DNA of 43,384 nt from a virus (IMGVR_UViG_2925908680_000005:1-43384); one strand, 5' to 3'; positions 1-43,193 are shown, numbered from the stretch's first letter. A program made the numbers and translations. The notes: generated by a model from the letters alone, not told the origin.

Positions 1-1866
1 TCACGTAGTACCCAATATAGTCGTACCATCTATGGTTTCGACTCCCGCCGGGGCCAATAATTGCTGTATCCAGCCAATAGCATGCCCTCGCTCAACGCAC
101 TGGGAGAAAAACGCACGCTGCTTTGCTCTGGTAAAGGCAACAAAAAAAGTGTTTAGCTCTTCACCCCGTTGCGGCGTAAGGCTCCACCAAGTCTGATTGT
201 CGAGCCCATAAAATATCATCGTATGGAACTCAAGACCTTTGCTTTTATGGACGGTCATCAGAGCTACCTGGCCAATACCTTCGAACTCATCCAGCGCCTC
301 CGTCCAGCTGCTGCTGTGTTCTGCACACTCTTTCAGGAGAGTGACAAATCCACTCCACACCCTCTCAAAATCTCTTGCACGCTGGTAAGCGGGAAAGGAT
401 TGCCGAAGCCTAGGGGTCCCGACAAATTCAAGAAGCATCTCTGCAATCTCTTCCGCCGAATCCGGACTAGGCTGGCGATGCGCTAGCTCTGTCCTTAATT
501 TACGGACGAATGCTTCAAGCTTAACCAGCAATCGTTCCTGCGTGAGATCGTTATCCGGATCGGCAGCCTCCAAAAACAGATAGTTCTGCTGGGTCTGCTC
601 CCAGTTTTCCGGGCTTCGCTCCGTCGCTCCCAGGCGGAGTAAAGGAACAAATATACCGGTCAGCTCTTCACCAAGCAGATCCTGTATCTGAATTTCACCG
701 ACTGACCGGGCCGCATTTCTGATCCTGAGACCTCGTGCCGCAAAAGAGGGGGCTATTTCACCCTCAACCTGATCTGCCCGCATTCTGATCAGAATCGCTA
801 CATCATGTGGTGCAACACGCTCTGACTGAACCTCACGGCTCACCCATTCAGCCAGATAATTGTTCTCGTCATCTGCGCTCCGGAATTGCCAGATAGCAGA
901 AACCTCACCTTCGATTTCACGGGTCCCTTGTGCCTGCACTTCTTCCACATTATCGTCTATCCGGCGGGCAATCTCGTGCTGAATACGAACCAGATCCACA
1001 TGTGACCGCCAGTTAGAAAGCAGTGTTATGCGTCTGGCAGCAAAGTCGTTTTCAAACTGGTCAAAGGCGTCATTCATGGCTCCCGCCCATCCCATGATAC
1101 GCTGCTTATCATCGCCGACTGCCGTAAAGACAGCATCGCTACCATCGAATGCCGTTAGCAGCATGTCATACTGGGCATAGGTGGTGTCCTGGTATTCATC
1201 AAGAAAGACGATGGGATATGTTGCCTGTAAGGCCCGGCGGATATATGAATTTTCCTGAAGCAGCAGTTTTACAAGCCTGTTTATCATCGGGAAGGACAGG
1301 GATATCTCGTCGCCCCCGAAGAATTGTTCATGCCAGTAATCTGCTAACGCACGATGTACTTCAGATCCATTTGACAAGTCAATTGGCAGGTCTGTCAGAA
1401 GCAGTCTTCTCTCAAGCTGTTGAGCACTCACTCCGTGATAGCCATGTCGCTCAATAAAATCGTCATAATCCCTACGAAACGGATTAACAATCTGATACGT
1501 ACCGGGCGCATTGAACGGCTCAGGTAAAGCCGGACGAAACCGGTCCAGAAGCCCCTTGGTAAAGGCATCAAAAGTCATCGAATCAAAGCGCCGCGCCTGA
1601 TCTCTCGGGCAACGCTTTGCAACCCTTTCGGCGAGGTTTTGGGCGGCATCTTTTTTAAAGCTGATGGCCAGAATACGTTTGGGTGCCGGACAAATACCTG
1701 TCTGCAGAAGATAGGTCGCCTTCTGTGCCAGAAACTCAGTTTTTCCGGCACCGGCACCAGCGGTCACAAGGATGCTGCTATCGGTTTCACGTAAAGCCTC
1801 CCACGCTCTCCCTTCCAGACCACCGACACCCTGAGGTACCCAGTCGTCTCTGCTTACGCGGGTCAT
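1..1866 (-). CDS. UvrD/PcrA-like superfamily-1 DNA helicase (GajB-like partner of an OLD-family nuclease)
   Basis: 621-aa ORF ending at a stop codon at the window edge; helicase motifs visible in translation: AGAGAGKT (Walker A), DEYQDT (motif II), VGDDKQRI, TVHKSKGLEF, VAFTRAK; start overlaps upstream gene stop by 4 nt. Confidence 0.8.
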   Translation of the reverse strand: MTRVSRDDWVPQGVGGLEGRAWEALRETDSSILVTAGAGAGKTEFLAQKATYLLQTGICPAPKRILAISFKKDAAQNLAERVAKRCPRDQARRFDSMTFDAFTKGLLDRFRPALPEPFNAPGTYQIVNPFRRDYDDFIERHGYHGVSAQQLERRLLLTDLPIDLSNGSEVHRALADYWHEQFFGGDEISLSFPMINRLVKLLLQENSYIRRALQATYPIVFLDEYQDTTYAQYDMLLTAFDGSDAVFTAVGDDKQRIMGWAGAMNDAFDQFENDFAARRITLLSNWRSHVDLVRIQHEIARRIDDNVEEVQAQGTREIEGEVSAIWQFRSADDENNYLAEWVSREVQSERVAPHDVAILIRMRADQVEGEIAPSFAARGLRIRNAARSVGEIQIQDLLGEELTGIFVPLLRLGATERSPENWEQTQQNYLFLEAADPDNDLTQERLLVKLEAFVRKLRTELAHRQPSPDSAEEIAEMLLEFVGTPRLRQSFPAYQRARDFERVWSGFVTLLKECAEHSSSWTEALDEFEGIGQVALMTVHKSKGLEFHTMIFYGLDNQTWWSLTPQRGEELNTFFVAFTRAKQRAFFSQCVERGHAIGWIQQLLAPAGVETIDGTTILGTT

Positions 1867-3824
1867 TCATTCTCTCCTGACAGATTAAGCTTATCCGTAA
1901 CGTACTCAATGAGCGCCCTGAGCTCTACAGGAGCGGACGCAGTAACACCGCCGCCCGCGATACGGGAAAAAGCCGCAAGGTGAGTTTCGGGCTTACTGCG
2001 GCTCAGGAACAGATACGGATACCATTTGAAAGCGTCATCATAATGCGCGGTATACAAGGCAGGATTACCACCTGTTTTCAGCGTACTGACCTTTTTGGCT
2101 TGAATAGCAGCAGCACTACTCTGGGGTCCATTGCCACCTGGATTGGCAACCTGATAAGCGGTTGGAAAGGCGAGCAACATGGCAAAATCGAGATCAATGG
2201 GATAGGAAAAGAAAACTCCTTCCCTCCTGAATGCTTGAAGCCATTGACCTTGCAGGCCTTCATTATAAAGCTGTTGGTCGGTAAGCTGAGCAGCATTAGC
2301 ACCATTGGTGCTCCCCAAATTACTCCCGATAGCGGCCAAATTCTGAAGGCAGCTTCTCATGGCATTCGCCCCACCATGTCGGCGCCCCAGATCAAGATCG
2401 AGCAAAGTGGCATGTGGAATCTCAAGATCATTCAGCAGCCGCCAGAAATGCGCTACGAACCGTCCACCGAGCGGAACGACGGGAACGAATGATGGATCAA
2501 GGGAAACACCCATCTCTTCCGCAATTTTCGGAATAACTACTCGCTCTGAGTCTCCCTCACCCAGGATTACAAATCGCGCAAAATAAAGTTCGGGGTATGC
2601 CTTTACAGCCAGCCTGACATAAACGCTTGCCTCAACATCATCTTCAGGCAGGGTCAGTTCTCGGATCGATGAGCACCGAGCGCTCCGGTCCATACGAAAA
2701 TATCTCACTTCCTCCGGCTCTATCCGGCTCAGGATAGATGGGGAATGGCTAGATAGCAGAACCTGCGCGGAAGGCAGTGCGCCAATCTCTCTCGCCTGCT
2801 TGATGATGCGAGATAAAAAGAACGGTGACAGGCTGTTTTCTGGTTCTTCGATGGCAAGAATCGTCAGGTGAATACGGCGTAACTTATCCTGTTCAAATGA
2901 GCTGTCATCAGCAGGCAAAGAAAATGCTTCCCGCTCGGTTTCGAGCGTTGCCGCTGTAAGAGCGATATGGAACAGAGAGCGCTGACCGTCACTCAGCTCG
3001 GACAAACGACGCTCCTGACCTTCTTCATCAGGCGTAAAAGTAAATTCGGCTTTACGAACAAGCTCCTCAAAACGGTTCTCGATGAGCCTTAAACGCGGTT
3101 TACTGTCTGTATCGGCCTCATGGACCTGTTGCCAACGCTTCGAAAGACGCTCCAGCAGAAACTTCGACGGCTCCTCTTCCTCGAAACTGCTCTGGATCTG
3201 ACCGGCATTAACATAGCTTGCATCCCTAAATGCCGTCGACCATTTGGCAGCCTGCCATAACCGCCCTTTTAGAAGGGCGGTCACTTGAGTCGTCGCATCA
3301 CGATTTGCCGGTAAGTAAATAAACTGGATTGAAGAGCGCTCTACAGCCTGAACCCTGGAACAGTCATCCCATTCAAAATTATCATCCAGGGCTCTTATCC
3401 AGCGTATATCCTCCTCAATTGCTCCCTCCGGCGTACCGTCATCCGTCCATGTTGCTTGTAGTCGTATCCGGGCCTTAAGGGGCTCTCCCTCACCGGAAGC
3501 CGCCATCTGATTAAAGAACTCCGGAACGGCATCAAGAGGAGAAGCGTCTTGCTCTTCCAGTTCAGGGAAGGCAAGTACCGCTTCGACAAACAGACTGTCG
3601 CCAGACTGCAGCTCCTGCCGGTCAATAGGTATGTGAAAATCTCGACGCTGTACCGATCGCTGCGCTGATGTTGTACCAAACAACCTGGACACAGCTTGCA
3701 GCACTGCCGTCTTTCCGGAGCCGTTTCCGCCGACAAGTATTGTCAGTTCTTCCTCAAAATTTAGCTCGACCACCTCATGCCCGAAACAACGAAAATTCTG
3801 TAGCTTTATCTTCTCTATTTTCAT
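1863..3824 (-). CDS. OLD-family ABC ATPase with C-terminal TOPRIM nuclease domain (GajA-like / class 2 OLD)
   Basis: 653-aa ORF; N-terminus MKIEKIKLQNFRCF with Walker A GGNGSGKT; C-terminal TOPRIM-like glutamate (ILGEGDSE) and DxD (LLDLDLG); translationally coupled to the downstream helicase. Confidence 0.8.
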   Translation of the reverse strand: MKIEKIKLQNFRCFGHEVVELNFEEELTILVGGNGSGKTAVLQAVSRLFGTTSAQRSVQRRDFHIPIDRQELQSGDSLFVEAVLAFPELEEQDASPLDAVPEFFNQMAASGEGEPLKARIRLQATWTDDGTPEGAIEEDIRWIRALDDNFEWDDCSRVQAVERSSIQFIYLPANRDATTQVTALLKGRLWQAAKWSTAFRDASYVNAGQIQSSFEEEEPSKFLLERLSKRWQQVHEADTDSKPRLRLIENRFEELVRKAEFTFTPDEEGQERRLSELSDGQRSLFHIALTAATLETEREAFSLPADDSSFEQDKLRRIHLTILAIEEPENSLSPFFLSRIIKQAREIGALPSAQVLLSSHSPSILSRIEPEEVRYFRMDRSARCSSIRELTLPEDDVEASVYVRLAVKAYPELYFARFVILGEGDSERVVIPKIAEEMGVSLDPSFVPVVPLGGRFVAHFWRLLNDLEIPHATLLDLDLGRRHGGANAMRSCLQNLAAIGSNLGSTNGANAAQLTDQQLYNEGLQGQWLQAFRREGVFFSYPIDLDFAMLLAFPTAYQVANPGGNGPQSSAAAIQAKKVSTLKTGGNPALYTAHYDDAFKWYPYLFLSRSKPETHLAAFSRIAGGGVTASAPVELRALIEYVTDKLNLSGENE

Positions 3825-3872
3825 TCCTGATTACCTTTTTGTAAGAGATGCCTTTAAAAGTTAGCGAGCCCC

Positions 3873-5108
3873 CTAAATAACCCACTCATCAATCATATCA
3901 GCCCAGTCCTGCAACATAGATGTACGCTGATCACGATACTCGGCTTTGTTATATATCGCCCTCACACCTTTTTGCTCATGTGCCAGGCATTTCTCTATCC
4001 AATCGGTGTTGTAACCGGCTTCATGGAGTAAGGTACTTGCTGTACGCCTCAGATCGTGGGGTCCAAACTTGGCAAGGGACTGCCCTTCTTTCTGAGCCAG
4101 CTTGTAAGTCATCGTCATCACCCGGTTTAGCGTGGCACTGCTCATGGGCACGTCAGAATCGTAACGCGACGGCAGAACATAATCCGATCCACCGGAGAAC
4201 GTCTTCAAAGCGATGAGAATGTCCATGGCCTGCCTGGATAGAAACACCAGGTGAGGATTTCGCCGCTTCATCCTTTCTTTAGGGATCGTCCAGAGCGCTT
4301 CGCTGAAGTTGATCTCACTCCAGGTAGCATTCGTCAGCTCGCTTTTTCGCACCATCGTCAACAACAACAGTTTTACCGCTGCGCGGATCGATGGTGATGT
4401 ACCAATACGCCCCATGTACTGATACATGATCCTAATTTCTTCGGGCGTCAGGGTTCGATCTCTCGGCTCAAACCTGGCAATGCTTGCTGGCCGCACCAGG
4501 TCTGCTGGGTTCTCAACCTTCTGGCCTCGCTCAGTGGCCCAGCGGTATACCTGGAGTACAATCTCACGCGCATGAACCGCCGTAGCAGGCGCACCGCGCT
4601 CTACGATGGCGTCGGTAAGTGCTCGCAAGTCCTCGTGGGTGATTTCGGTCAGCTTCTGATTGCCGAATTTCGTTTCCAGCTCTCTCGTATAAACCGAGCG
4701 GCGCATATCACGGGTAGAGTCGGCCATCTGGTAGCCACGTAGCCACTTTTCCGCCCAGGCACCAAAGGTTTCAGCCCCTTTTACACGCGCCTTGTCCCGT
4801 GCCTTCTCCTTCGCTGGCGACTTTCCATCAGCGACCATCCGCTTGGCTTCACTAAGTCGCTCACGGGCTTCTGCCAGAGTGATACCCCCAACGCCATAGC
4901 GGCCAAAGGTGATTGTCTCTTGCCTGCCATTGATCGAGTAGTTGTAACGGAATGAGATAGAGCCGGCAGGAGTGACAGCCACATAGAGGCCATCCCGGTC
5001 ATTCACCTTGTAGAGTTTATCCCTCGGCTTGAGGTTGCGCAGCTTGGTATCGGTCAGCAAGAGTCTTATCCTTCTTCGATTCCAATACCATGCTGGAAGA
5101 TTACCCAA
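3873..5108 (-). CDS. int: tyrosine site-specific integrase (P4/CP4-57-like, DUF4102-type N-terminus)
   Basis: 411-aa ORF; N-terminal LTDTKLRNLKP...GLYVAV arm-binding-type domain; C-terminal catalytic region HDLRRTAST...AHE...Y typical of tyrosine recombinases. Confidence 0.9.
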   Translation of the reverse strand: MGNLPAWYWNRRRIRLLLTDTKLRNLKPRDKLYKVNDRDGLYVAVTPAGSISFRYNYSINGRQETITFGRYGVGGITLAEARERLSEAKRMVADGKSPAKEKARDKARVKGAETFGAWAEKWLRGYQMADSTRDMRRSVYTRELETKFGNQKLTEITHEDLRALTDAIVERGAPATAVHAREIVLQVYRWATERGQKVENPADLVRPASIARFEPRDRTLTPEEIRIMYQYMGRIGTSPSIRAAVKLLLLTMVRKSELTNATWSEINFSEALWTIPKERMKRRNPHLVFLSRQAMDILIALKTFSGGSDYVLPSRYDSDVPMSSATLNRVMTMTYKLAQKEGQSLAKFGPHDLRRTASTLLHEAGYNTDWIEKCLAHEQKGVRAIYNKAEYRDQRTSMLQDWADMIDEWVI

Positions 5109-5153
5109 AAATCGAGCAATAAAACCAATAAAAACAGATAGTTAAATAATTTC

Positions 5154-5242
5154 GATACCATGAACACACAGGATCAAGCAGCATGGTATCGGCTATCACT
5201 CATGGCATCATGTCTCGATAATACCACCTTGGATACCATGCT
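5154..5242. repeat. three copies of GATACCATG (two direct at 5154-5162 and 5234-5242, one inverted at 5182-5190) upstream of int; candidate integrase or regulatory binding sites
   Basis: read directly in the int upstream intergenic region. Confidence 0.4.
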
Positions 5243-5290
5243 CAAGCGGTGCTTCCCGCTGCCATCAGTTGCCAAATAATGCCAGACATA

Positions 5291-5320
5291 AAAACAAAAA
5301 AGCCCATCAAAACATGGGCT
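5291..5320 (-). terminator. intrinsic terminator ending the late (lysis) operon before int
   Basis: stem AGCCCAT/ATGGGCT with 6-nt loop, followed on the minus strand by a U-run (plus-strand AAAACAAAAA). Confidence 0.6.
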
Positions 5321-5492
5321 TGAGTGTAATTTAATGCCAGTTTGTACCAGCTAATGCCTAACGTGTGATCATTCCACTCAATTATTTACGACAACCATAA
5401 CCAATTGAGTGATAACATTTTTCCAAAACTTCATCTTTCTCATACCGTTTTATATACCGTCACCGGAAATCAGTACCATGAAAAATGCCATG

Positions 5493-5975
5493 CTATCTGG
5501 TCAAAGTGTCGTACTGTTTTTCGCAGACTCTTCCGGCTTCGGCTGCCCGGTCAGCATACTCTGCCAGTTGTCTATTTCTCTCGAGAGATTTGCTGAACAC
5601 GTCGGCAAGCAAAACTCCGGTATCTGCGGCTGACGCCCCAGCGCCGACAATGGCGTTATACTGCCTGAGCTGCTCACGGATGGCAACGAGCTGTTGCTGC
5701 AACCGGCCAGCGCGAGCGGCAGCATCAAGAGCATCATTGCGCGCCTGGTCGATCCTCTGCTGAGCTTCACGTTCATTGGTCGCTTTCTCCTGTTCGTAGT
5801 GCTGACGAACTCTCTCATCTTCGACTTTGCGGTCTTCCTTCGCCTGCGCATACCCGGCGTCGTACTGACGGCTGCCGTGTACATTCCAGGCAACAACTCC
5901 TGATATGACCAGAACAGCAAGCATCACCACGATAACCAACTGTTTCCAGTATGCTTTTACGAATGCCCAGATCAT
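5493..5975 (-). CDS. i-spanin (Rz-like lysis protein)
   Basis: 160 aa; N-terminal transmembrane segment ([18 protein letters not shown]) then charged coiled-coil-like region; last gene of lysis cassette. Confidence 0.6.
5501..5776 (-). CDS. o-spanin (Rz1-like outer-membrane lipoprotein) embedded in the i-spanin gene in another frame
   Basis: alternate-frame ORF with lipoprotein signal and lipobox ([26 protein letters not shown]) then Pro/Ser-rich short mature part. Confidence 0.5.
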   Translation of the reverse strand: MNVKLSRGSTRRAMMLLMLPLALAGCSNSSLPSVSSSGSITPLSALGRQPQIPEFCLPTCSANLSREIDNWQSMLTGQPKPEESAKNSTTL

Positions 5976-6601
5976 ACCGCCAGCACCTTACTGGCAGTGA
6001 TATACCGCGCGCGCCGGTCGTCGATGCCGTTCCTGCCACCATTGATAATCAGAGTTACACGTGCAATATCGCCGGTATACTTCATGCATCCTTTGCTAAC
6101 GAAGAACCACGCCGCGCTACGAGCCGCGTATTCGTCCTGCGCCAACAGTTCAGGATTCTCAAGCAGGTCCACTTTCAGGCCGTTTCCGCAATCACGATAG
6201 TTATTCAAACCGGTAATCTGGATAAGTCCACGCCCTCGGTAATTCCAGCCATCGCCGGGGGCATTATTCCCCATGCGTTTGCTGTACACCAGATTGGCGA
6301 TCGCACGCTGGCGCTCAAGTGGCAATGGTGGCTCGCCTGCACGACGACCCAATGCGTTAGCCTGTCCCTGAGTGAGACGACCGGCACGAACGAAGTTAGC
6401 CAGTCCGGTGACGCTGTAATTGAAATTCTCCTGCAACCTGGTGAAGCCACCAGACTCATGCCCGACCTGAGCAATAAACATTGCCTGATCTTCTGCTTTG
6501 CTAATACCAAACTCTTTCATCGCAGAAGTTATATGCGAGAACCAGCGTGCGGCCAGCGCCTCGCTAATACCAGCAGCTCGCTGGAATTGTTTAATCTCCA
6601 T
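5972..6601 (-). CDS. endolysin, glycoside hydrolase family 19 (chitinase-like lysozyme)
   Basis: 209 aa with GH19-type blocks ([27 protein letters not shown]); sits between holin-like genes and spanins. Confidence 0.8.
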
Positions 6602-6884
6602 GTTTAGACCTCGTTATCTTGAAAATTTGTACCACGTTCCCTTTTGTCCTGATGAGCGCAGCCAGGAACACAACTTTGATGATGACTTCTGACCAGTCGG
6701 CGCTGACGTAGTACCCGTAGAAGGTCCGGATAGGTACACTGGCAGCAACGACGATCAGCAGATAGGCGAGCCAGCCTCCCCACCAGCGATGGCGTGACCC
6801 GTCACGGCGGAACAGAAACGCTCGGATTGCAATGCCGCCGCAGATAGCGGCATTCAGGATGATAAGCAGCTCAGGACTGGTCAT
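6591..6884 (-). CDS. small membrane protein, holin/antiholin-like
   Basis: 97 aa, 2-3 predicted transmembrane segments, directly upstream of endolysin. Confidence 0.45.
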
Positions 6885-7284
6885 CGTCTTTTCTCCCCGG
6901 GATCAGGTCACGCGGATTTTCAGAACGGTGATACAGCCAGATGCCAATGCGGACAGCGACGATAGCCGACACGAACGCCCCGGCAGAAAACACAATCCCC
7001 TTTTCAAATGAGTCCTGCGTAATCGTAGGGATCATGCTGGCAATACCGATAAGAATGGATGCTGTCGCCTTATAAAAGAGAAGGCCGCAGAAGAAGCTGA
7101 GAAACGCCAGAAGTAACCGCCTCTTTATGGGATACTCCACCGCCGAGGTAACAAAAATTACCGCACCAGCAAGCGCCCCTAAAGCCACCTCCGGCGGCAC
7201 ACCCGCGACCACAGACATTAGCGCGCTCAGGCTAAGCCCCTGATTCAGCGATTCCGTGGTTAACGAGTGCGACATAGTGACCAC
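6871..7284 (-). CDS. holin-like membrane protein
   Basis: 137 aa with several hydrophobic helices; first gene of lysis cassette. Confidence 0.45.
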   Translation of the reverse strand: MVTMSHSLTTESLNQGLSLSALMSVVAGVPPEVALGALAGAVIFVTSAVEYPIKRRLLLAFLSFFCGLLFYKATASILIGIASMIPTITQDSFEKGIVFSAGAFVSAIVAVRIGIWLYHRSENPRDLIPGRKDDDQS

Positions 7285-7380
7285 CGTTTAATGTGCATAA
7301 AGAACCCCCTTAGTTGATGAGCTCATCATACACAATAAACCATATGTGGATTGACTTTGATCGGATAACCATTAACGAAA

Positions 7381-7395
7381 TTACCTTTTGGGTGA
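7381..7395. promoter_or_regulatory. imperfect copy of the TTACC-N5-GGTAA palindrome (TTACC TTTTG GGTGA) about 30 bp upstream of the acyltransferase start
   Basis: read directly. Confidence 0.35.
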
Positions 7396-7424
7396 TATAC
7401 TAATGGCAAATCAATGAGTAATAT

Positions 7425-8540
7425 ATGGACATCCTTTCAATGATAAAGAATGAATTAAAATCAATCCAAATTCTTAGAGGTTTGGCGGCACTTATGGTCG
7501 TTCTATACCACTTTAGGACCGTTCTTAATTATGATAATGTCAGGATGGGTGATTATCTTTTTGGTAAGGGGTTTATTGGTGTTGATTTATTTTTCGTAAT
7601 TAGTGGATTCATAATGGCTTACACGACCAACTTGACTCATGACGCTATTGCCGATGTAAAATCATTTGCAATTAAAAGGGTTAGTAGAATATATCCTGTT
7701 CTTTTTACTTCATTTATTATTGCGTCTTTATCATTCATGAATTTTGAAAGGGTATTATCACAGTCTTTTTTTGAAACACTAAGCAGCCTTGCCTTGATTC
7801 CTACAACAAGTTCTTTGCCGCCATTTTTTATAGATACACATTCAATACTTGGTGTTAGGTGGACTTTAAATTATGAGGTATATTTCTATTCTATTTTTGC
7901 GATATCTTTATTTTTTGGAAAGAGAAGGTATTATGTTCTACTGGCATGGATTATTATGACAGTATTTTTTACTCAAATACTAATTAATGGATCATTCAGT
8001 GCCAAGGCTGTAAGCCCTAGATTTGAAAGTCCATGGTTGTCAATGATTACAAACTCTATCGTTCTTGATTTTGCAATTGGCGTTATTGTAGCAATGGCAA
8101 TTGAGGCGGGAATAATAATAAATAGAAGATTATCAATTGCCTCTTTGGTTTTTGTTGCTTATGTTTCAATGAACCAGATAGCTGTAGTAAAGGGTCACGG
8201 ACTCTCAGAGTTTGGAATGTACGCAGCAATAATTGTTTATTTATGTGTTTGCCTTGAAAAAAATGGATTTAGTTTTAATTCGCCAGCGCTAGAGCATTTG
8301 GGTAATATTTCTTATTCTTTATACCTATTGCATCTGTCGGTAAGTACATTCATCGGAATAATAGTTACAAATCTCGGAGTTAGGGAATACTTTTCAAATG
8401 GCATTTATATGGTAACACTTGTAGCCATTAGTATAATGTCAGCACACATCTCGTATAAGTATATTGAGTTATCGCTATCGAGGAGGGTAAGAGGATGGAT
8501 GATGATAAAATCTGGCATCCTTGCCAAAAATAAAAATTAA
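7425..8540 (+). CDS. acyltransferase family 3 membrane protein (O-antigen acetyltransferase-like; likely lysogenic conversion gene)
   Basis: 371 aa, multi-pass membrane protein with family-3 N-terminus (RGLAALMVVLYHF...GVDLFFVISGF); strongly AT-rich relative to flanks; opposite strand to surrounding late genes. Confidence 0.8.
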   Translation: MDILSMIKNELKSIQILRGLAALMVVLYHFRTVLNYDNVRMGDYLFGKGFIGVDLFFVISGFIMAYTTNLTHDAIADVKSFAIKRVSRIYPVLFTSFIIASLSFMNFERVLSQSFFETLSSLALIPTTSSLPPFFIDTHSILGVRWTLNYEVYFYSIFAISLFFGKRRYYVLLAWIIMTVFFTQILINGSFSAKAVSPRFESPWLSMITNSIVLDFAIGVIVAMAIEAGIIINRRLSIASLVFVAYVSMNQIAVVKGHGLSEFGMYAAIIVYLCVCLEKNGFSFNSPALEHLGNISYSLYLLHLSVSTFIGIIVTNLGVREYFSNGIYMVTLVAISIMSAHISYKYIELSLSRRVRGWMMIKSGILAKNKN

Positions 8541-30543: not shown

Positions 30544-30620
30544 GTGGCATTAGCTCAGTTGGACAGAGCAACCGCCTTCTAAGCGGTTGGTCGCAGGTTC
30601 GAATCCTGCATGCCACGCCA
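30544..30620 (+). tRNA. tRNA-Arg (anticodon UCU), phage-encoded
   Basis: cloverleaf folded by hand: 7-bp acceptor GTGGCAT/ATGCCAC, D-arm GCTC-AGTTGGACA-GAGC, anticodon stem ACCGC/GCGGT with loop CTTCTAA, T-arm GCAGG-TTCGAAT-CCTGC, discriminator G, encoded CCA. Confidence 0.85.
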
Positions 30621-36473: not shown

Positions 36474-37274
36474 TTACTTGATAAATCCTGCCGCCTTTCC
36501 TCGCCTGTATTCCTCCATCAGCCACTGCGCCGGTGTTATTCCCCCCAAGGTGGCGGCGTTAGGCATACACCCGAAACTTCGCCCTGGTGGATGGTAAACG
36601 TCTCTCCCTGTGTCCGGAGGCGTACTCATGGGCTCTGGCTTTGCCTGTATGCTGATCACCGGATCGGGTATCTGCTGTCCGGAAGCCACCTTTTTCGCCC
36701 AATCATCGAGCAGCCTGCGCGCGTGTTTCTCAACCTCAATCTCGCTAAGCTGGCGCTGATACATTGCACGGCGGGTATCACATACGACCCAGTACATAAC
36801 CGGATGTCGCCACGGGAATCTTTCGGGACCACCAGGATATAAACTTTTTTCCTTGCTGTACCGGTGAAACTCCGCCATCACATCGTCAATGGTAACGCCA
36901 AGAACCATCTTGCTGTCTTTACACCACTTGATAAATTGCCCTGGCGACGGCCAGAACGGAGATTCACTGGCGCGGGCGTGGCGCATACCAGCAGAAACCT
37001 GTTCACGGGTTCGGATCCCCCCTTCGGCAAACGCAGCAATCCACTGCTGTTTTGCAGCAACTTCCTGCTCTGGCGTCTTCAGGTTGGTTACCACTGCCGC
37101 CGGAAACAGTTGTTTCAGCTGTTTGAAAAGGGCATCAACAAGCCTCTCTGCTGACATGTTCACCACATTGTCATTGTTGACGTATTGATGCTCATAACCT
37201 GACATGCGAGAAAGGGCTTCTCCGTCACGGTTTTGTATCGCGGTAAAAACGTTGTTCACAAGAAATCCTCCCAC
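36474..37274 (-). CDS. replication protein P-like (helicase loader)
   Basis: 266 aa; central region (FPAAVVTNL...QWIAAFAEGGIRTREQVSAGMRHARASESPFWPSPGQFIKWC) resembles lambda P as recalled from memory. Confidence 0.7.
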   Translation of the reverse strand: MGGFLVNNVFTAIQNRDGEALSRMSGYEHQYVNNDNVVNMSAERLVDALFKQLKQLFPAAVVTNLKTPEQEVAAKQQWIAAFAEGGIRTREQVSAGMRHARASESPFWPSPGQFIKWCKDSKMVLGVTIDDVMAEFHRYSKEKSLYPGGPERFPWRHPVMYWVVCDTRRAMYQRQLSEIEVEKHARRLLDDWAKKVASGQQIPDPVISIQAKPEPMSTPPDTGRDVYHPPGRSFGCMPNAATLGGITPAQWLMEEYRRGKAAGFIK

Positions 37275-38143
37275 GCTTCAGGGCTGTTCCAGTGCGGAAC
37301 GTTGTTATCAGGTAATGTTGATTGCTTCTGTCTGCTAATCTGCAGCCGCCTTGCCAGCTTCTGCTCCCACTGTGCCTGATGGTATGCCTTACCCTCAGCC
37401 ATCCAGTAAATTCTGAACTCTGCAAGTTCCTGTGCCGTTGGCAGACTGTCCAGGTAGATCCCCTGCAATGAGCTTTTCCGAAGAAAGTCATCTGATGGCT
37501 GCCATTGTTCATGCATGACAAATTTTCCTAATTGCCCTGGCCCACCAGGAGGAACAAAGTTATTCATCACGGCGTTGTTTGCGCCGGGGTCATGAGGCAC
37601 AGAATCCCCGGTTTTTGTCCTGCTCTCCCTCTCTTGGTTAAATGACTGGTTATATGACTGGTTCTGGATCCCGTTTTTGGGATCATTCAACATCCCGTTT
37701 TTGGGATCATTCAACATCCCGTTTTTGGGATCATTCAACATCCCGTTTTTGGGATCATTCAACATCCCGTTTTTGGGATCATTCAACATCCCGTTTTTGG
37801 GTATATTCCCGTTTTCGGTAACATTACCGTTTTCGGGTTCATTACCCCCTTCCCGGTTGCCTTTAATGTTCCCGTTTTTGGTTATATTAAGAGAGAAAAC
37901 CCGCACTCTTTTCGTCGCTCCCTTTCTCTCTCCGGTATCTGAAATAAGCCCCATTTTCATGAGCGATATAAGCCCGGCCTGCACGGTTTTTTTATTCAAG
38001 CAAGTGTCTTTAACGAGGCGTTCTATGCTGGGGTAGCAGAGGTTATATTCATCGGCTCTGTCAGCCATCGAGAGCAGTATGAGCTTTAATGATGAGCTGC
38101 CTGGATCTGTCTCCCAGGCCCAATCTGTTGCATGTCTGCTCAT
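37256..38143 (-). CDS. replication initiator O-like protein with in-gene iterons
   Basis: 295 aa; N-terminal winged-HTH-like domain; central GMLNDPKN x5 peptide repeat encoded by tandem 24-bp DNA repeats. Confidence 0.7.
   Translation of the reverse strand: MSRHATDWAWETDPGSSSLKLILLSMADRADEYNLCYPSIERLVKDTCLNKKTVQAGLISLMKMGLISDTGERKGATKRVRVFSLNITKNGNIKGNREGGNEPENGNVTENGNIPKNGMLNDPKNGMLNDPKNGMLNDPKNGMLNDPKNGMLNDPKNGIQNQSYNQSFNQERESRTKTGDSVPHDPGANNAVMNNFVPPGGPGQLGKFVMHEQWQPSDDFLRKSSLQGIYLDSLPTAQELAEFRIYWMAEGKAYHQAQWEQKLARRLQISRQKQSTLPDNNVPHWNSPEAWEDFL
37666..37881. repeat. iteron array (candidate origin of replication): five perfect tandem 24-bp repeats (37681-37800) flanked by degenerate 14-25-bp copies
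   Basis: unit GATCATTCAACATCCCGTTTTTGG repeated head-to-tail five times; degenerate CCGTTTT(C/T)GG-containing copies on both sides. Confidence 0.7.
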
Positions 38144-39787: not shown

Positions 39788-40087
39788 ATGAACGTTAATC
39801 AGCAGAAAAATCTTCAAAAAATCATGCTGGCATTCGACAAGGACTACCGCCTGTCAGAACAGCTATATGACCGACAAGTTGAACTGATTGAGAGCATCCG
39901 ACTTCATCAACTGTCCTCAACTTTCGACGTTGTAACAGGCAAAGGCGTTCGTCAGGAAGTGCTGGAGGCAGCTAAAGACAGCCCTGAGTTCGAAGAACTT
40001 ATGGATGCCTACCGGCGCGAGGCAATGGCAATTATCGCCCGCTGGGATCTGGCTGATCAGCTTGATGGGCAGAGGGACGCGGCATGA
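39788..40087 (+). CDS. hypothetical early protein
   Basis: 99 aa from the MNVNQQ methionine with GGGAGGG ribosome-binding site; stop overlaps next start. Confidence 0.45.
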   Translation: MNVNQQKNLQKIMLAFDKDYRLSEQLYDRQVELIESIRLHQLSSTFDVVTGKGVRQEVLEAAKDSPEFEELMDAYRREAMAIIARWDLADQLDGQRDAA

Positions 40088-40905
40088 AGCCGGGAATTTA
40101 TTTCGACATCAGCAACGAAGACTACCACGCCGGTGACGGCGTGAGTAAGTCGCAACTGGACATGGTTGCCAAGAATCCGGCGCTTCTCAAATGGGTTCAG
40201 GCAGCACCAGAAGACGAAGAGAAAAAGTCTGCACTGGATATGGGAACCGCATTGCACTGTCTGCTTCTGGAACCTGGAGAATTCGACAAACGCTTCATCG
40301 TTTCACCGAAATTCGATCGTCGGACAAAACAAGGTAAAGCTGACGAAGAAGCATTTCTTCGTGATGTGGCGGATATGGGTATTACGGTACTTGATGTCGA
40401 GCAGTGGCGAAAACTGGAGCTGATGCGTGATAGCGCAATGGCTCATCCGGCGGCACGCTGGATGCTGGAAGCACCTGGTTACTGCGAAGCATCAATGTAC
40501 TGGAACGATGAAGATACGGGTGAGTTGTGCCGAATTCGTCCAGACAAATGGCTGAACGAGCACAACGTGATCGTCGACGTGAAAAAGGTTGCAGATATGG
40601 ACCGTTTTGCACGCCACATCGAGGAATTCCGCTACCACGTGCAGGACGCAATGTACCGCGAAGGTGCAATGAGGGTTACTGGTCAGCCGCATGGTTTTTT
40701 CTTTCTTGCCGTGAGCGAAAGCATTGATTGTGGTCGGTATCCGGTACGCGTGTTCGAGCTGGATGCGCAGGATGTCGATGCCGGGCACGCTCTGTTCCGC
40801 CGGGATCTGAATACCTATCACGAATGCCGCATCAATGATGAATGGGGTGGTGTGGAAATCATTAAACGCCCTGAGTGGGCACGCAAACAGGATATGTACA
40901 TATGA
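40084..40905 (+). CDS. PD-(D/E)XK exonuclease (RecE-like nuclease domain)
   Basis: 273 aa; nuclease-like pattern (IRPD...IVDVKK); translationally coupled to annealase. Confidence 0.6.
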   Translation: MKPGIYFDISNEDYHAGDGVSKSQLDMVAKNPALLKWVQAAPEDEEKKSALDMGTALHCLLLEPGEFDKRFIVSPKFDRRTKQGKADEEAFLRDVADMGITVLDVEQWRKLELMRDSAMAHPAARWMLEAPGYCEASMYWNDEDTGELCRIRPDKWLNEHNVIVDVKKVADMDRFARHIEEFRYHVQDAMYREGAMRVTGQPHGFFFLAVSESIDCGRYPVRVFELDAQDVDAGHALFRRDLNTYHECRINDEWGGVEIIKRPEWARKQDMYI

Positions 40906-41843
40906 GCAACGACATCGCAAACATCAACGCACCAGTAGACACAGCAATCGCTGGAACTGCTGCAACTATTTTCAGCCCAGACGGCTTGAACCAACTGATG
41001 AAATTCGCCGAGGTAATGGCGCAAAGCCGCGTAACGGTACCGGCGCACCTCGCTGGGAAACCAGCTGATTGCATGGCCGTGGCAATGCAGGCTGCGCAGT
41101 GGGGAATGAACCCGTTTGCCGTGGCTCAGAAAACCCATGTTGTGAACGGCACGCTAGGTTATGAAGCCCAATTAGTAAACGCAGTTATCTCAACAATGTC
41201 GCCAACAAAAGATCGCATCAACTACGAGTGGTTCGGGCCGTGGGAACGCGTGATCGGTAAGTTTGTTGAGAAAACATCCAAAAACGGCAATCCGTATATC
41301 GCACCAGGCTGGACTCTAAAAGACGAAGAAGGTTGCGGTGTTCGCGTATGGGCAACCATGAAGGGCGAGGATCAACCTCGAGTGCTTGAGTTAATGCTGT
41401 CTCAAGCACAGGTAAGAAACTCCACACTTTGGGCCAGTGATCCGAAACAACAACTCGCATACCTTGCAACAAAACGCTGGTCTCGCTTGCACTGTCCTGA
41501 CGTAATCATGGGCGTCTACACACCAGACGAATTACAGGAAACGGCACCGCGCGTTGAGCGAGACATTACTCCGCAAACGACCACTGCTGCGGGAATGAAC
41601 AGTCTGATTAACGCTAAACAAGTGAAAAATCCTGATGAGCAAACGCGTAAAGCGGATAGCCGTGATCCAGAAGAAATGCTAATGGCCTTTACCAGCGCAG
41701 CGATGAATTACAGCACTGTCTCCGAACTGGATAAAGCTTACAAATACATTGCACAAAAACTTTCAGATGATGACGAACTGCTGGCAAAAGCCACCGACGT
41801 TTACAGCGTTCGTCGGGAAGAATTAAACGAAACATCTATGTAA
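40902..41843 (+). CDS. RecT/Red-beta family single-strand annealing protein
   Basis: about 313 aa from the MSNDIANIN methionine; C-terminal region (WASDPKQQLAYLATKRW...ERDITPQ) resembles lambda Bet as recalled from memory. Confidence 0.6.
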   Translation: MSNDIANINAPVDTAIAGTAATIFSPDGLNQLMKFAEVMAQSRVTVPAHLAGKPADCMAVAMQAAQWGMNPFAVAQKTHVVNGTLGYEAQLVNAVISTMSPTKDRINYEWFGPWERVIGKFVEKTSKNGNPYIAPGWTLKDEEGCGVRVWATMKGEDQPRVLELMLSQAQVRNSTLWASDPKQQLAYLATKRWSRLHCPDVIMGVYTPDELQETAPRVERDITPQTTTAAGMNSLINAKQVKNPDEQTRKADSRDPEEMLMAFTSAAMNYSTVSELDKAYKYIAQKLSDDDELLAKATDVYSVRREELNETSM

Positions 41844-41892: not shown

Positions 41893-42141
41893 ATGAAAGG
41901 TGCATTAGGTAAGAAGGAACTCCTGGCGGTGGTGCCACTGTCATGGAGCACTATCGACCGTATGGAGCGCGCAGGGGAATTTCCTAAACGCTGGTATATC
42001 ACCGATAAACGCTGCGCATGGAACCGCGATGAAGTTGAGCGTTGGCTTGATGAACGTCAGGCAGCAAGCCCGGCAGAGTTCCAGGGTAAAAAACCTCCTG
42101 TTCAGCAACGTGTATATCGTCCTGTGAGCAACGCGGCATGA
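41893..42141 (+). CDS. AlpA-family DNA-binding protein (excisionase-like regulator)
   Basis: 82 aa with AlpA-like HTH (LLAVVPLSWSTIDRMERAGEFPKRW...ERW). Confidence 0.6.
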   Translation: MKGALGKKELLAVVPLSWSTIDRMERAGEFPKRWYITDKRCAWNRDEVERWLDERQAASPAEFQGKKPPVQQRVYRPVSNAA

Positions 42142-42250: not shown

Positions 42251-42550
42251 GTGAGAAAGTTAAGCCGACTTGAAAAATATCACATGAACAAGGTTTCAAT
42301 GCGCAGCCATTCAAAGGTTGTTGCCGTTACTCCTGCGGCGATAGAGATCGAAAAACGCGCGATTGAAAGAGAGAAAAAAGGGCAGTTCCGCATTGCCGCT
42401 CACCTTTGGCTTCAGTGTATGGATGTTGCTTCTGGTGATGTTGAGCGTGCAAGGATCGCGGTTCGCAGGGACCAATGTATCACAAAAGGTAACGGCCTTC
42501 GCCGTGGCGACTATAGCGGCATAGGATGTTGTGGGGTGGTTTATGACTAA
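42251..42550 (+). CDS. PerC/ANR-like small regulator (putative)
   Basis: 99 aa (GTG start, or about 88 aa from the ATG at 42284); central A.E.E..G.F..AA.LW motif. Confidence 0.35.
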   Translation: MRKLSRLEKYHMNKVSMRSHSKVVAVTPAAIEIEKRAIEREKKGQFRIAAHLWLQCMDVASGDVERARIAVRRDQCITKGNGLRRGDYSGIGCCGVVYD

Positions 42551-43193
42551 GAAATACACACTAATCTATGCAGATCCACCCTGGGTATACCGGGACAAAG
42601 CCGCAGATGGTAATCGCGGTGCCGGTTTTAAATATCCGGTTATGAGTGTGCTGGATATCTGCCGCCTTCCTGTGTGGGATTTGGCCGATGAAAACTGTCT
42701 GTTGGCCATGTGGTGGGTGCCAACACAACCACTCGAAGCGCTAAAAGTTGTTGAAGCCTGGGGATTCCGTCTGATGACCATGAAGGGCTTCACGTGGATA
42801 AAATGTGGTAGTCGACAACCAGATAAACTGGTTATGGGTATGGGACACATGACTCGCGCCAATAGTGAAGATTGCCTGTTTGCAGTAAAGGGAAAACTAC
42901 CTCCGCGCATTAATGCAGGGATCGTTCAGTCATTTACCGCACCGCGGCTTGAGCATTCAAGAAAACCAGATGTCGTTCGTGAAAAACTTGTGCAATTGTT
43001 AGGCGATGTTTCTCGCATTGAACTGTTCGCCCGCCAGACGTCTCATGGCTTCGATGTTTGGGGTAATCAGTGCGAAGACCCGGCAGTGCAACTACACCCT
43101 GGATACGCGTTGGATATTGGCGGATTAACAAATGCATTCAGCAATGCTCCGCTGTCACCAACAGACAACCAGGGGCGGGAGCGTGCAGCATGA
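42543..43193 (+). CDS. MT-A70 family DNA N6-adenine methyltransferase
   Basis: about 216 aa from the MTKKYTLIYADPPW methionine; DPPW catalytic motif. Confidence 0.75.
   Translation: MTKKYTLIYADPPWVYRDKAADGNRGAGFKYPVMSVLDICRLPVWDLADENCLLAMWWVPTQPLEALKVVEAWGFRLMTMKGFTWIKCGSRQPDKLVMGMGHMTRANSEDCLFAVKGKLPPRINAGIVQSFTAPRLEHSRKPDVVREKLVQLLGDVSRIELFARQTSHGFDVWGNQCEDPAVQLHPGYALDIGGLTNAFSNAPLSPTDNQGRERAA

Follow-up and report, generated by a model that had tools for sequence, protein, structure and literature searches.

An intact long-form Gabija gene pair assigned to a guaA island in tandem with a phiV10-like prophage

The first 3824 positions of a window described as viral (IMGVR_UViG_2925908680_000005, the whole stretch of 43,384 nucleotides that we analysed) hold what we read, with a probability of roughly 0.87, as an intact long-form Gabija system, which is carried as cargo by a relaxase-less integrative mobilizable element (IME) at guaA, lies in tandem with a phiV10-like prophage and would act by a mechanism taken over from its homologues. 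The Gabija pair as such is already known, standard tools would call it a textbook system, and by itself it holds no new biology. The main value of the analysis is a correction, in that gajAB and the integrase beside them are assigned to a neighbouring island and not to the phage. The features on which this reading depends are listed in Table 1.

Table 1. Features at the left end of the window.
Feature	Coordinates	Strand	Description and basis
gajB	1..1866	-	SF1 UvrD/Rep/PcrA-like helicase partner, 621 aa, RefSeq WP_000199052.1
gajA	1863..3824	-	Class 2 OLD-family ABC-ATPase/TOPRIM nuclease, 653 aa, RefSeq WP_000687641.1
int-gajA spacer, 48 nt	3825..3872	-	Sequence read, promoter/terminator scan
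Tyrosine integrase (int) of guaA island	3873..5108	-	Pfam; RefSeq start 5060, 395 aa, WP_000954587.1
Island end, att core to int	5218..5321	-	Terminator-like hairpin 5300-5321, sigma-70-like promoter 5218-5245; consensus scan only
Hybrid att core ATCATT-CCACTCAAT	5368..5382	.	guaA 3' end sequence minus one C; island left, phiV10-like prophage right

Results

Gene pair and family assignment

The stop codon of gajA overlaps the start codon of gajB by 4 nt in an ATGA at 1863-1866, and a GGAGAG Shine-Dalgarno sequence stands 8 nt upstream of the gajB start. As read from this overlap, gajB is translationally coupled to gajA. Both genes are downstream of, and co-oriented with, the tyrosine integrase gene, and 48 nt separate the int stop from the gajA ATG. 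The reading frames, the overlap and the gap thus bear out the original prediction of two coupled genes that follow an integrase in the same orientation. A simple consensus scan found neither a terminator-like nor a promoter-like site in the 48-nt spacer, which suggests that the gajAB transcript probably arises by read-through of int or starts at a promoter located within the 3' end of int. Both edges of the window coincide exactly with stop codons, the left one with that of gajB. The window looks as though it was cut at gene boundaries in the manner of a provirus prediction, with the remainder of the gajAB-carrying island left outside.

PADLOC profiles were applied to each protein singly, and Pfam and NCBIfam models were also run. 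GajA matched PADLOC PDLC00090 (E=5.4e-238, 790 bits), with residues 1-647 falling on profile positions 1-655 of 659, and GajB matched PDLC00103 over essentially its full length (E=6.1e-215, 714 bits); the best non-Gabija PADLOC models were AriA (121 bits) and RTasHel (209 bits). Because the profile E-values reach down to 1e-238, a chance match is ruled out. Pfam placed AAA_15, AAA_21 and SMC_N on GajA, together with OLD-like_TOPRIM at residues 415-478 (E=6e-16), and placed UvrD-helicase and UvrD_C on GajB. Based on the full-length GajA and GajB profile matches and the complete catalytic motifs described below, we classify the pair as Gabija (class 2 OLD), with a GajA nuclease and a GajB helicase, and consider it an intact and ordinary member of a subfamily that is already catalogued. 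The class 2 OLD/Gabija pairing proposed in the original prediction was therefore upheld by the profile-HMM check, and it recurs beyond the window: a coupled pair of equal sizes and with the same 4-nt overlap was present in all three other, distant genera checked (Desulfuromonas, Citrobacter and Hahella), amid unrelated flanks. A 347-aa hypothetical gene that adjoins gajB in the island has no PADLOC or Pfam match, and therefore gives no sign of a third Gabija component. Neither accession, WP_000687641 nor WP_000199052, turned up in a search of the literature.

The length of both proteins had also been taken as a possible mark of a divergent subtype. This idea was not sustained, since thousands of homologous proteins share the length class (~650-662 aa for GajA and 613-626 aa for GajB) and PADLOC already models proteins of this length, its best-matching models having 659 and 612 positions. 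We place the pair in a widespread long-form clade (~655/620 aa) that is already modelled and is distinct from the short B. cereus pair.

Catalytic motifs and predicted folds

GajA contains a Walker A motif (GGNGSGKT, residues 32-39), LSDGQ at 277-281, ILAIEEPE at 322-329 and SSHSP at 358-362, followed in its TOPRIM domain by EGDSE at 423-427 and DLD at 476-478. The N-terminal ABC-type ATPase set of Walker A, signature, Walker B and H-loop is complete, and it is invariant in 27 homologues, all at least 64% identical, whose alignment also served as AlphaFold2 input. Using a list of reference residues for B. cereus GajA (BcGajA) taken from PMC10781630 and PMC8136825, we found that GajA K38, H360, E423, G453/454, D476, D478 and D544 align to BcGajA K35, H320, E379, G409, D432/D434 and D511. 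These residues, along with LSDGQ and EE326-327, are invariant or nearly so in the 27 homologues, and the invariant K583 is probably the counterpart of BcGajA K541. In GajB, SF1A motifs I-VI were all located (AGAGAGKT at 36-43, DEYQD at 223-227, VGDDKQRI at 250-257, NWRS at 285-288, TVHKSKGLE at 538-546 and VAFTRA at 576-581) and are invariant across 27 homologues. The Walker A motif, TOPRIM glutamate and DxD of GajA and the full SF1 set of GajB are thus present as originally described.

The AlphaFold2 model of GajA is poor (pLDDT 57) and was used for fold ranking only; its best Foldseek matches are the GajA structures 8u7i and 8sm3 and Thermus OLD. The same low-confidence model has helices at 485-534, flanked by the DxD strand (471-476) on one side and by a strand at 537-539 on the other. 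At a pLDDT of only 57, these helices would fit the TOPRIM helical insert that marks class 2 against class 1. For GajB (pLDDT 77), the closest folds are UvrD1, UvrD, Rep and PcrA, and BcGajB matches as well.

Gabija (GajA/GajB) of Bacillus cereus VD045 (Doron 2018) is one of the nearest systems described. The present pair resembles that system in its two-gene operon of gajA then gajB, in a GajA that joins an ABC-ATPase to a TOPRIM domain with the E, G, DxD and distal D, and in a GajB that is an SF1 UvrD-like helicase; moreover, the B. cereus GajA chains are the closest structural matches of our GajA model. In contrast, identity is only ~14-17%, the proteins measure 653/621 aa here and 578/494 aa there, and Walker A reads as a canonical GGNGSGKT here and as GMNDIGKT in the alignment of B. 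cereus GajA. The present GajB also has the full size of a UvrD/Rep core, unlike B. cereus GajB, and thus probably larger 1B/2B subdomains, and the present host is Gram-negative with a putative IME as carrier. Structures of the B. cereus VD045 system are available as 8SM3, 8U7I and 8J4T (Cheng 2021, PMC8136825; Antine 2023, PMC10781630). The class 2 OLD proteins of Burkholderia pseudomallei and Xanthomonas campestris (6NK8, 6NJV) are, like the present pair, proteobacterial and coupled to a UvrD-like helicase, and they give the best sequence match to the TOPRIM core (E ~4e-8), with an identical EGDxER motif and DxD. Their structures comprise C-terminal regions only, the nucleases are reported to be non-specific and BpOLD to be able to hydrolyse ATP (Schiltz 2019, in PMC10568477), and the same review lists their anti-phage activity as unknown (PMC10568477). 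The Gabija of Pseudomonas aeruginosa PA14, which we liken to the present one by description, is likewise Gram-negative and borne by an integrative element, the conjugative island PAPI-1 (PMC12407980). Defence by this system requires both genes as well as the ATPase, TOPRIM and DExx residues (Hong 2025 preprint, PMC12407980), is reported to be non-abortive and to target linear DNA ends that lack RecBCD (PMC12407980).

The guaA island and the tandem prophage

The window from 1 to ~5367 shows 100% identity to the guaA-proximal end of a ~15-kb phage-free island that occupies the guaA-yfgI interval in E. coli, and the stretch 5218-5321 is identical to island-only genomes. By consensus scan, the hairpin in this stretch stands where it could terminate guaA in strains that have only the island, and the promoter lies upstream of int. 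The integrase has P4-type Arm-DNA-bind_3, Phage_int_M and Phage_integrase domains (Pfam). It is 100% identical in the phage-free islands of E. coli 203740 and A_5 and 54% identical to that of a related guaA prophage, in which the integrase lies next to guaA, beyond a homologue of the window's last gene. According to RefSeq annotation of two loci, the island encodes the integrase, an AlpA-like regulator, a RepA-like ATPase and TrbJ/TrbL (VirB5/VirB6), with Pfam matches to Phage_AlpA and AAA_25; no relaxase is among the genes annotated in RefSeq, and copies of the att core are found at both island ends. We infer that the island is a relaxase-less IME of the VirB5/VirB6 type, which targets the guaA 3' end and lies mostly outside the window. 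In a related island that is free of cargo, int is followed directly by alpA-HTH, and we read gajAB as cargo of the present island, in the place between its integrase and its alpA-like regulator.

A survey of E. coli defence hotspots (Hochhauser 2023, PMC10121019) gives guaA-yfgI as hotspot #10, with Uetakevirus prophages listed among the occupants, and describes relaxase-less VirB5/VirB6 IMEs as carriers of defence, VirB5/VirB6 being used as markers in defence islands (PMC10121019; Guedon 2017 as cited there). The chromosomal site of this hotspot is that of the present island, and the IME type is the one proposed here; the text of PMC10121019 and parts of its tables do not name the exact Gabija island.

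A search of the window for the full att core that allowed mismatches only was empty because the window copy carries a 1-nt deletion, and the shortened core was found at 5368-5382. The left arm of this hybrid att site is identical to the arm that faces guaA in island-only strains, and its right arm is, bar a few substitutions, the one that faces yfgI in a prophage-only strain. In two related lysogens, core copies border the prophage, with one end seen per lysogen, and prophage-only strains, also with one end per strain, run from yfgI into Rz and from DUF1382 through int into guaA. When window positions 12000-33000 were queried, phiV10 (39.1 kb) matched this prophage part, whereas megablast of positions 1-5200 retrieved none of 50,697 phage records, which counts against phage carriage. 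We assign the prophage to the phiV10-like Uetakevirus group, in tandem with the island at the same att site, and assign the integrase at 3873..5108 and gajAB to the island. Judging from homologous lysogens, the integrase of the prophage itself is expected immediately beyond the right end of the window; the tandem model predicts that the phage integrase (about 416 aa) is followed there by the core ATCATTCCCACTCAAT and then by guaA. Beyond the left end, it predicts the 347-aa hypothetical gene, alpA, a RepA-like gene, trbJ/trbL, a HEPN gene, a second core and yfgI.

These results revise the original prediction of a prophage defence hotspot beside the integrase. The core at 5368-5382 separates the cassette from the prophage, so that gajAB do not lie inside the prophage att sites and would not move with the phage genome. 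What stands is the placement of an integrase-adjacent cargo on a mobile element, and this element is the guaA island.

Discussion

Several other readings of the cassette were weighed against an island-borne Gabija system. That the pair is a moron of the prophage itself, lodged in an int-proximal defence hotspot of the phage genome, would agree with its position next to, and in the orientation of, an integrase that abuts the phage lysis genes, and with the more distant GajA homologues (34-36% identity) found in a few phage or prophage-derived records. However, we judge this very unlikely, because the att core lies between int and the lysis genes with arms from two different elements, the identical int-gajAB block is present in phage-free islands, in related prophages the yfgI-side end is at Rz and an integrase of their own lies on the guaA side, none of the phage records matches the left end of the window, and phiV10 matches only the prophage part of the sequence queried. 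It is scarcely credible that the genes form a housekeeping or repair module, in which a RecF/SMC-like ATPase would work with a Rep/UvrD helicase outside defence. The helicase does score higher with Rep, UvrD1 and PcrA than with B. cereus GajB in both pairwise sequence and fold, and the ATPase N-terminus resembles RecF, SMC and Rad50, but the Rep, PcrA, UvrD and RecF equivalog scores fall 5-10 times under their cutoffs (for GajB, 100-134 bits against NCBIfam Rep, PcrA and UvrD cutoffs of 911-1168 bits), as opposed to 714-790 bits with the GajA/GajB profiles. The original prediction had itself named a housekeeping UvrD/Rep and RecF/SMC origin as a refuting outcome, and the fusion of a TOPRIM nuclease domain to the ATPase further opposes such an origin, as do the residence of the pair on a mobile island in ~0.1% of complete E. 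coli genomes and its varied neighbours in other hosts. Membership in another OLD/ABC-ATPase class, be it a solitary class 1 Old, PARIS AriA/AriB, Septu PtuA/PtuB or a retron-associated OLD, has a negligible chance of being correct. Partial PADLOC matches to AriA (E=2e-35), Old (4e-24) and PtuA (7e-22) and NCBIfam and PDB matches to PtuA on the first 50 residues point that way, yet the AriA, Old and PtuA matches cover only the common ATPase head and trail the GajA profiles by more than 600 bits, the TOPRIM domain is in the same polypeptide, unlike in AriA or PtuA, the partner is a UvrD-like helicase and not AriB, an HNH PtuB or a reverse transcriptase, and no Rfam family, retron RNA included, was found in window 1-5400. 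Profile scores and the Rfam scan led us to reject housekeeping UvrD/Rep with RecF, PARIS, Septu, retron-OLD and solitary class 1 Old as candidates.

For the preferred Gabija reading, the homologous systems of B. cereus and P. aeruginosa suggest that GajA and GajB would form a GajA4-GajB4 complex, in which the nucleotide-binding site of GajA (K38, H360) would hold the nuclease off at normal NTP levels, GajB would act at DNA ends or nicks, and the TOPRIM site (E423, D476, D478, D544) would cleave invading phage DNA by two-metal catalysis. The trigger could be nucleotide depletion, which would make defence abortive, or linear DNA ends lacking RecBCD, which would make it non-abortive. Such detail may not carry over because similarity to the B. 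cereus proteins is weak (E ~1e-10, 14-17% identity). There is a small chance that the long-form proteobacterial clade departs from the B. cereus mode and, instead of passively sensing nucleotides, truly hydrolyses ATP and unwinds DNA at RecBCD-free ends; the canonical ABC-ATPase catalytic set of GajA and a GajB of full UvrD-core size may provide the premise for such a mode. Although we expect that gajAB would be expressed and would protect against phage, the cassette could instead be silent or decaying here and confer no protection under native expression, which we consider improbable. Consistent with silence, no promoter-like site stands directly upstream of gajA, an insertion sequence (IS) has truncated the cassette in strain 504838, PA14 Gabija is repressed by its native upstream sequence (PMC12407980), and a phiV10-like phage with an Exo/RecT pair, a type proposed to license Gabija targeting, still lysogenised the same locus. 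On the other hand, both reading frames are intact with every catalytic residue present, DNA identity of the cassette and integrase is 99.9-100% across five unrelated isolates, read-through from int is possible, the phage may have arrived either before or after the island, and established prophages bypass Gabija in the PA14 work (PMC12407980).

Provirus-style windows that are cut at gene boundaries can take in both the integrase and the cargo genes of an adjacent island at the same att site, and therefore an att-site check is needed before an int-adjacent defence gene is credited to a phage. As an E. coli allele, the present pair would conveniently represent the abundant long-form clade of Gabija in a host that is easy to work with. 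Furthermore, a Gabija island beside a phiV10-like phage with an Exo/RecT module forms a natural pair for the competing triggers of nucleotide depletion and RecBCD-free DNA ends. The island could also exploit the co-resident Uetakevirus for its own mobility, given their common att site and the 54% identity of their integrases.

The intact cassette is present in five copies among 5426 complete E. coli genomes, and half of it has been lost to the IS in strain 504838. Among plasmids, only distant gajAB relatives (~68%) were found, on alpha- and beta-proteobacterial plasmids. In other hosts, relatives of gajAB adjoin differing restriction- or defence-like genes.

An intact Gabija system of a long-form clade

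The genes gajA and gajB lie on the minus strand downstream of a tyrosine-integrase gene. The TGA stop of gajA and the ATG of gajB overlap as ATGA, with a GGAGAG ribosome-binding site 8 nt upstream, and the integrase stop and the gajA ATG are 48 nt apart. A consensus scan revealed no terminator-like site within this 48-nt spacer and no promoter-like site directly upstream of gajA. This layout and the motifs described in the original prediction were all found in place, which confirms the observation.

To evaluate the identification as Gabija, we used the profile-HMM search proposed with it. GajA matched PADLOC model PDLC00090 (E = 5.4e-238; residues 1-647 on profile positions 1-655 of 659) and GajB matched PDLC00103 (E = 6.1e-215; residues 1-596), which indicates that the identification was right. 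Pfam domains were AAA_15/AAA_21 and OLD-like_TOPRIM (residues 415-478) in GajA, and UvrD-helicase and UvrD_C in GajB. We also aligned GajA to solved B. cereus GajA and class 2 OLD TOPRIM crystal structures. Residues K38, H360, E423, G453/454, D476/D478, and D544 correspond to BcGajA K35, H320, E379, G409, D432/D434, and D511, residues that published work assigns to the active site or finds necessary for cleavage or ATP sensing (PMC10781630, PMC8136825). In alignments of 27 homologues each, the GajA residues listed and the six SF1 motifs of the GajB helicase show no or almost no variation. AF2 modelled GajA poorly (pLDDT 57), but the PDB entries closest to that model were GajA chains 8u7i and 8sm3 together with Thermus OLD.

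Two other identities were considered for the pair. A housekeeping repair module is contradicted by the NCBIfam equivalog models for Rep, PcrA, UvrD, and RecF, which scored five- to ten-fold under their cutoffs. The AF2 model of GajB (pLDDT 77) best matched UvrD1, UvrD, Rep, and PcrA, and B. cereus GajB was also matched. In the profile searches, top similarity to housekeeping UvrD/Rep and an SMC/RecF-type ATPase lacking a nuclease domain, the outcome originally named as speaking against Gabija, was not found, with the Gabija profiles far ahead. Assignment to another OLD/ABC-ATPase system is likewise contradicted by the best non-Gabija PADLOC models, which trailed far behind (AriA, 121 bits; RTasHel, 209 bits).

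The pair had also been proposed as a divergent subtype on account of its length. Divergence from the B. cereus pair holds (about 14-17% identity, pairwise E-value near 1e-10), but the length is not unusual, being common to a large modelled clade. A protein database search returned 7,622 GajA-like and 2,210 GajB-like clusters, and nearly all of the top 120 in each set fell within 646-664 aa (GajA) or 612-629 aa (GajB), with sources that included Hahella, Halomonas, Idiomarina, Citrobacter, Providencia, Paracoccus, Desulfuromonas, Nitrospira, and many metagenomes. The best-matching PADLOC models already span 659 (GajA) and 612 (GajB) positions, which indicates that the extra length is a clade property already modelled. 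GajB is sized like a full UvrD/Rep core and therefore probably keeps larger 1B and 2B subdomains than BcGajB. Adjacent pairs of the same size with a 4-nt overlap occur in Desulfuromonas, Citrobacter amalonaticus, and Hahella among unrelated flanking genes, some of which look defence-like (e.g., Mrr_cat or DEAD/ResIII helicase). We found no published functional study of this long-form clade in the literature. Taken together, we conclude that the pair is a genuine and intact Gabija system belonging to a known, well-populated clade, with intact catalytic sites, conserved gajA-gajB coupling, and carriage on a mobile element.

Coordinates of features in the window and, where named, in other E. coli loci
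Feature	Coordinates	Strand	Remarks
gajB ORF	1-1866	-	621 aa
gajA ORF	1863-3824	-	653 aa
Tyrosine-integrase ORF	3873-5108	-	RefSeq start 5060; upstream of gajA
O-antigen acetyltransferase gene	7425-8540	+	GC 0.38; phrog_3333, E = 4e-61; between lysis cassette and tailspike
isrK (74.7 bits), then immediately C4 antisense RNA (79.5 bits)	11405-11586	+	Rfam
Transposase ORFs	11916-12821, 12779-13189	-	phrog_157
tRNA-Arg(TCT) gene	30544-30620	+	inside prophage near terminase genes
Predicted replication (DnaT-like/O-like) protein	37256-38143	-	five tandem octapeptide copies PKNGMLND
PDDEXK exonuclease (DUF3799) and RecT annealase	40084-41843	+
AlpA-like excisionase/regulator	41893-42141	+	prophage early-left operon
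MT-A70 family DNA methyltransferase	42531-43193	+	prophage early-left operon
Cargo-free related island	L002 (FDAARGOS_1300) 5971-8095
Truncated cassette	L011 (504838) 5759-8367		ISEc52 abuts truncated gajA; gajB and neighbouring hypothetical gene missing

Gabija resides in a guaA island beside a prophage

Five complete E. coli chromosomes match positions 1-5200 at 99.9-100% identity, and intact cassettes are rare (5 among 5,426 complete E. coli genomes). In the two of the five chromosomes inspected (203740 and A_5), no prophage is present at the guaA locus, which instead holds an island of roughly 15 kb without phage genes, in the order guaA/int-gajA-gajB-hypothetical-(IS100)-alpA-like HTH-RepA-like AAA_25 ATPase-...-trbJ-trbL-ptaRNA1 toxin-HEPN_LA2681/yfgI. 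Identity with the window ends at the guaA 3' end. A related island without Gabija (77.6% DNA identity in the integrase gene, 68% protein identity in AlpA) has alpA directly after the integrase, so gajAB, with one hypothetical gene, fills a cargo slot between int and alpA. The site guaA-yfgI is hotspot #10 of an E. coli defence-island survey, which lists Uetakevirus prophages among its occupants and describes VirB5/VirB6 relaxase-less IMEs as defence carriers (PMC10121019). The Gabija carrier is a known island type at a known E. coli hotspot. Outside the window, the island also carries an LA2681-type HEPN protein and a ptaRNA1-family type I toxin (L001/L003, the two phage-free islands; examples of further cargo at L003 10944-12913 and 18834-19877). 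These two proteins and a 347-aa protein, which is adjacent and convergent to gajB and lacks a Pfam or PADLOC match, are possible further defence or addiction cargo.

Copies of the att core ATCATTCCCACTCAAT bound the guaA island on both sides, and one lies at the single prophage end visible in each of two related lysogens. The window contains one core copy at 5368-5382 that lacks a single C (CC vs CCC). Its left arm is identical to the guaA-side arm of the island and its right arm matches the yfgI-side arm of the prophage except for a few substitutions, which is the signature of a tandem integration of two elements at a single attB. The window is a composite: from 1 to ~5367 it is the end of a non-phage island nearest guaA, and from ~5383 to 43384 it is a phiV10-like prophage. 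Its start is exactly the gajB stop codon and its end exactly another stop codon, which suggests that the segment was cut at gene boundaries, as if by a provirus caller. In E. coli FDAARGOS_1300, an att core likewise lies between the cargo-free island and a Uetakevirus-like prophage with an endosialidase tailspike, and five complete genomes carry such an island and a prophage of similar type in tandem, which indicates that these arrays recur at guaA.

The adjacent integrase had led to the proposal of a prophage defence hotspot, with Gabija as phage cargo. This reading is contradicted: int and Gabija lie outside the prophage, as shown by the phage-free islands, the hybrid att core, and the phage integrase at the guaA side of a related prophage, and none of 50,697 phage records matched positions 1-5200. 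Two prophage-only strains, each with one end visible, show yfgI/Rz-GH19 endolysin-holins-tailspike on one side and RecT-AlpA-PerC-MT-A70-DUF1382-integrase/guaA on the other; in the related lysogen, the phage integrase, 54% identical to that of the island, comes directly after the gene homologous to the last one of the window. The island-borne cassette may nonetheless be silent or decaying, as the lack of a promoter-like site directly upstream would allow. Decay has occurred in one E. coli lineage (504838), where an ISEc52-associated truncation has deleted gajB entirely, along with the 3' portion of gajA.

Predicted mechanism and trigger

By analogy with the family, GajA and GajB would form a 4:4 complex (PMC10781630) with a TOPRIM site expected to cleave DNA by a two-metal mechanism (PMC10568477). 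The Walker A, signature motif, Walker B, and H-loop of GajA are all canonical, a motif set compatible with true ATP hydrolysis, which is reported for a Burkholderia class 2 OLD protein. In the B. cereus system, cleavage is inhibited when nucleotides occupy the ATPase-like domain, a finding that points to nucleotide depletion as the activating event (PMC8136825). Gabija of P. aeruginosa PA14 is reported to be non-abortive and to block circularization of linear phage DNA without RecBCD, with targeting licensed by phage Exo/annealase or Gam proteins (PMC12407980). Either nucleotide depletion or RecBCD-free linear DNA could trigger this allele, and we prefer neither. The prophage exonuclease and RecT make the locus a natural test case for the RecBCD-free-DNA-end model. 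A phage with these proteins, of the class proposed to license Gabija (PMC12407980), nevertheless lysogenised beside the Gabija island.

Features of the neighbouring prophage

Over the structural and packaging region queried (12000-33000), the prophage is 97% identical to phiV10 (Uetakevirus). The match does not begin until about 13228; together with the transposase ORFs, this is consistent with an IS element at 11916-13189 that interrupts the prophage when compared with phiV10. The isrK/C4 pair, an RNA type that controls antirepressor expression in P1/P7-type and some P22-like immunity regions, lies between this IS and the tailspike region. Annotations of O157 typing phages 9 and 10 include the tRNA-Arg(TCT) gene as well. 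The O-antigen acetyltransferase gene is a serotype-conversion moron, like that known in phiV10, and is the real cargo gene of the prophage.
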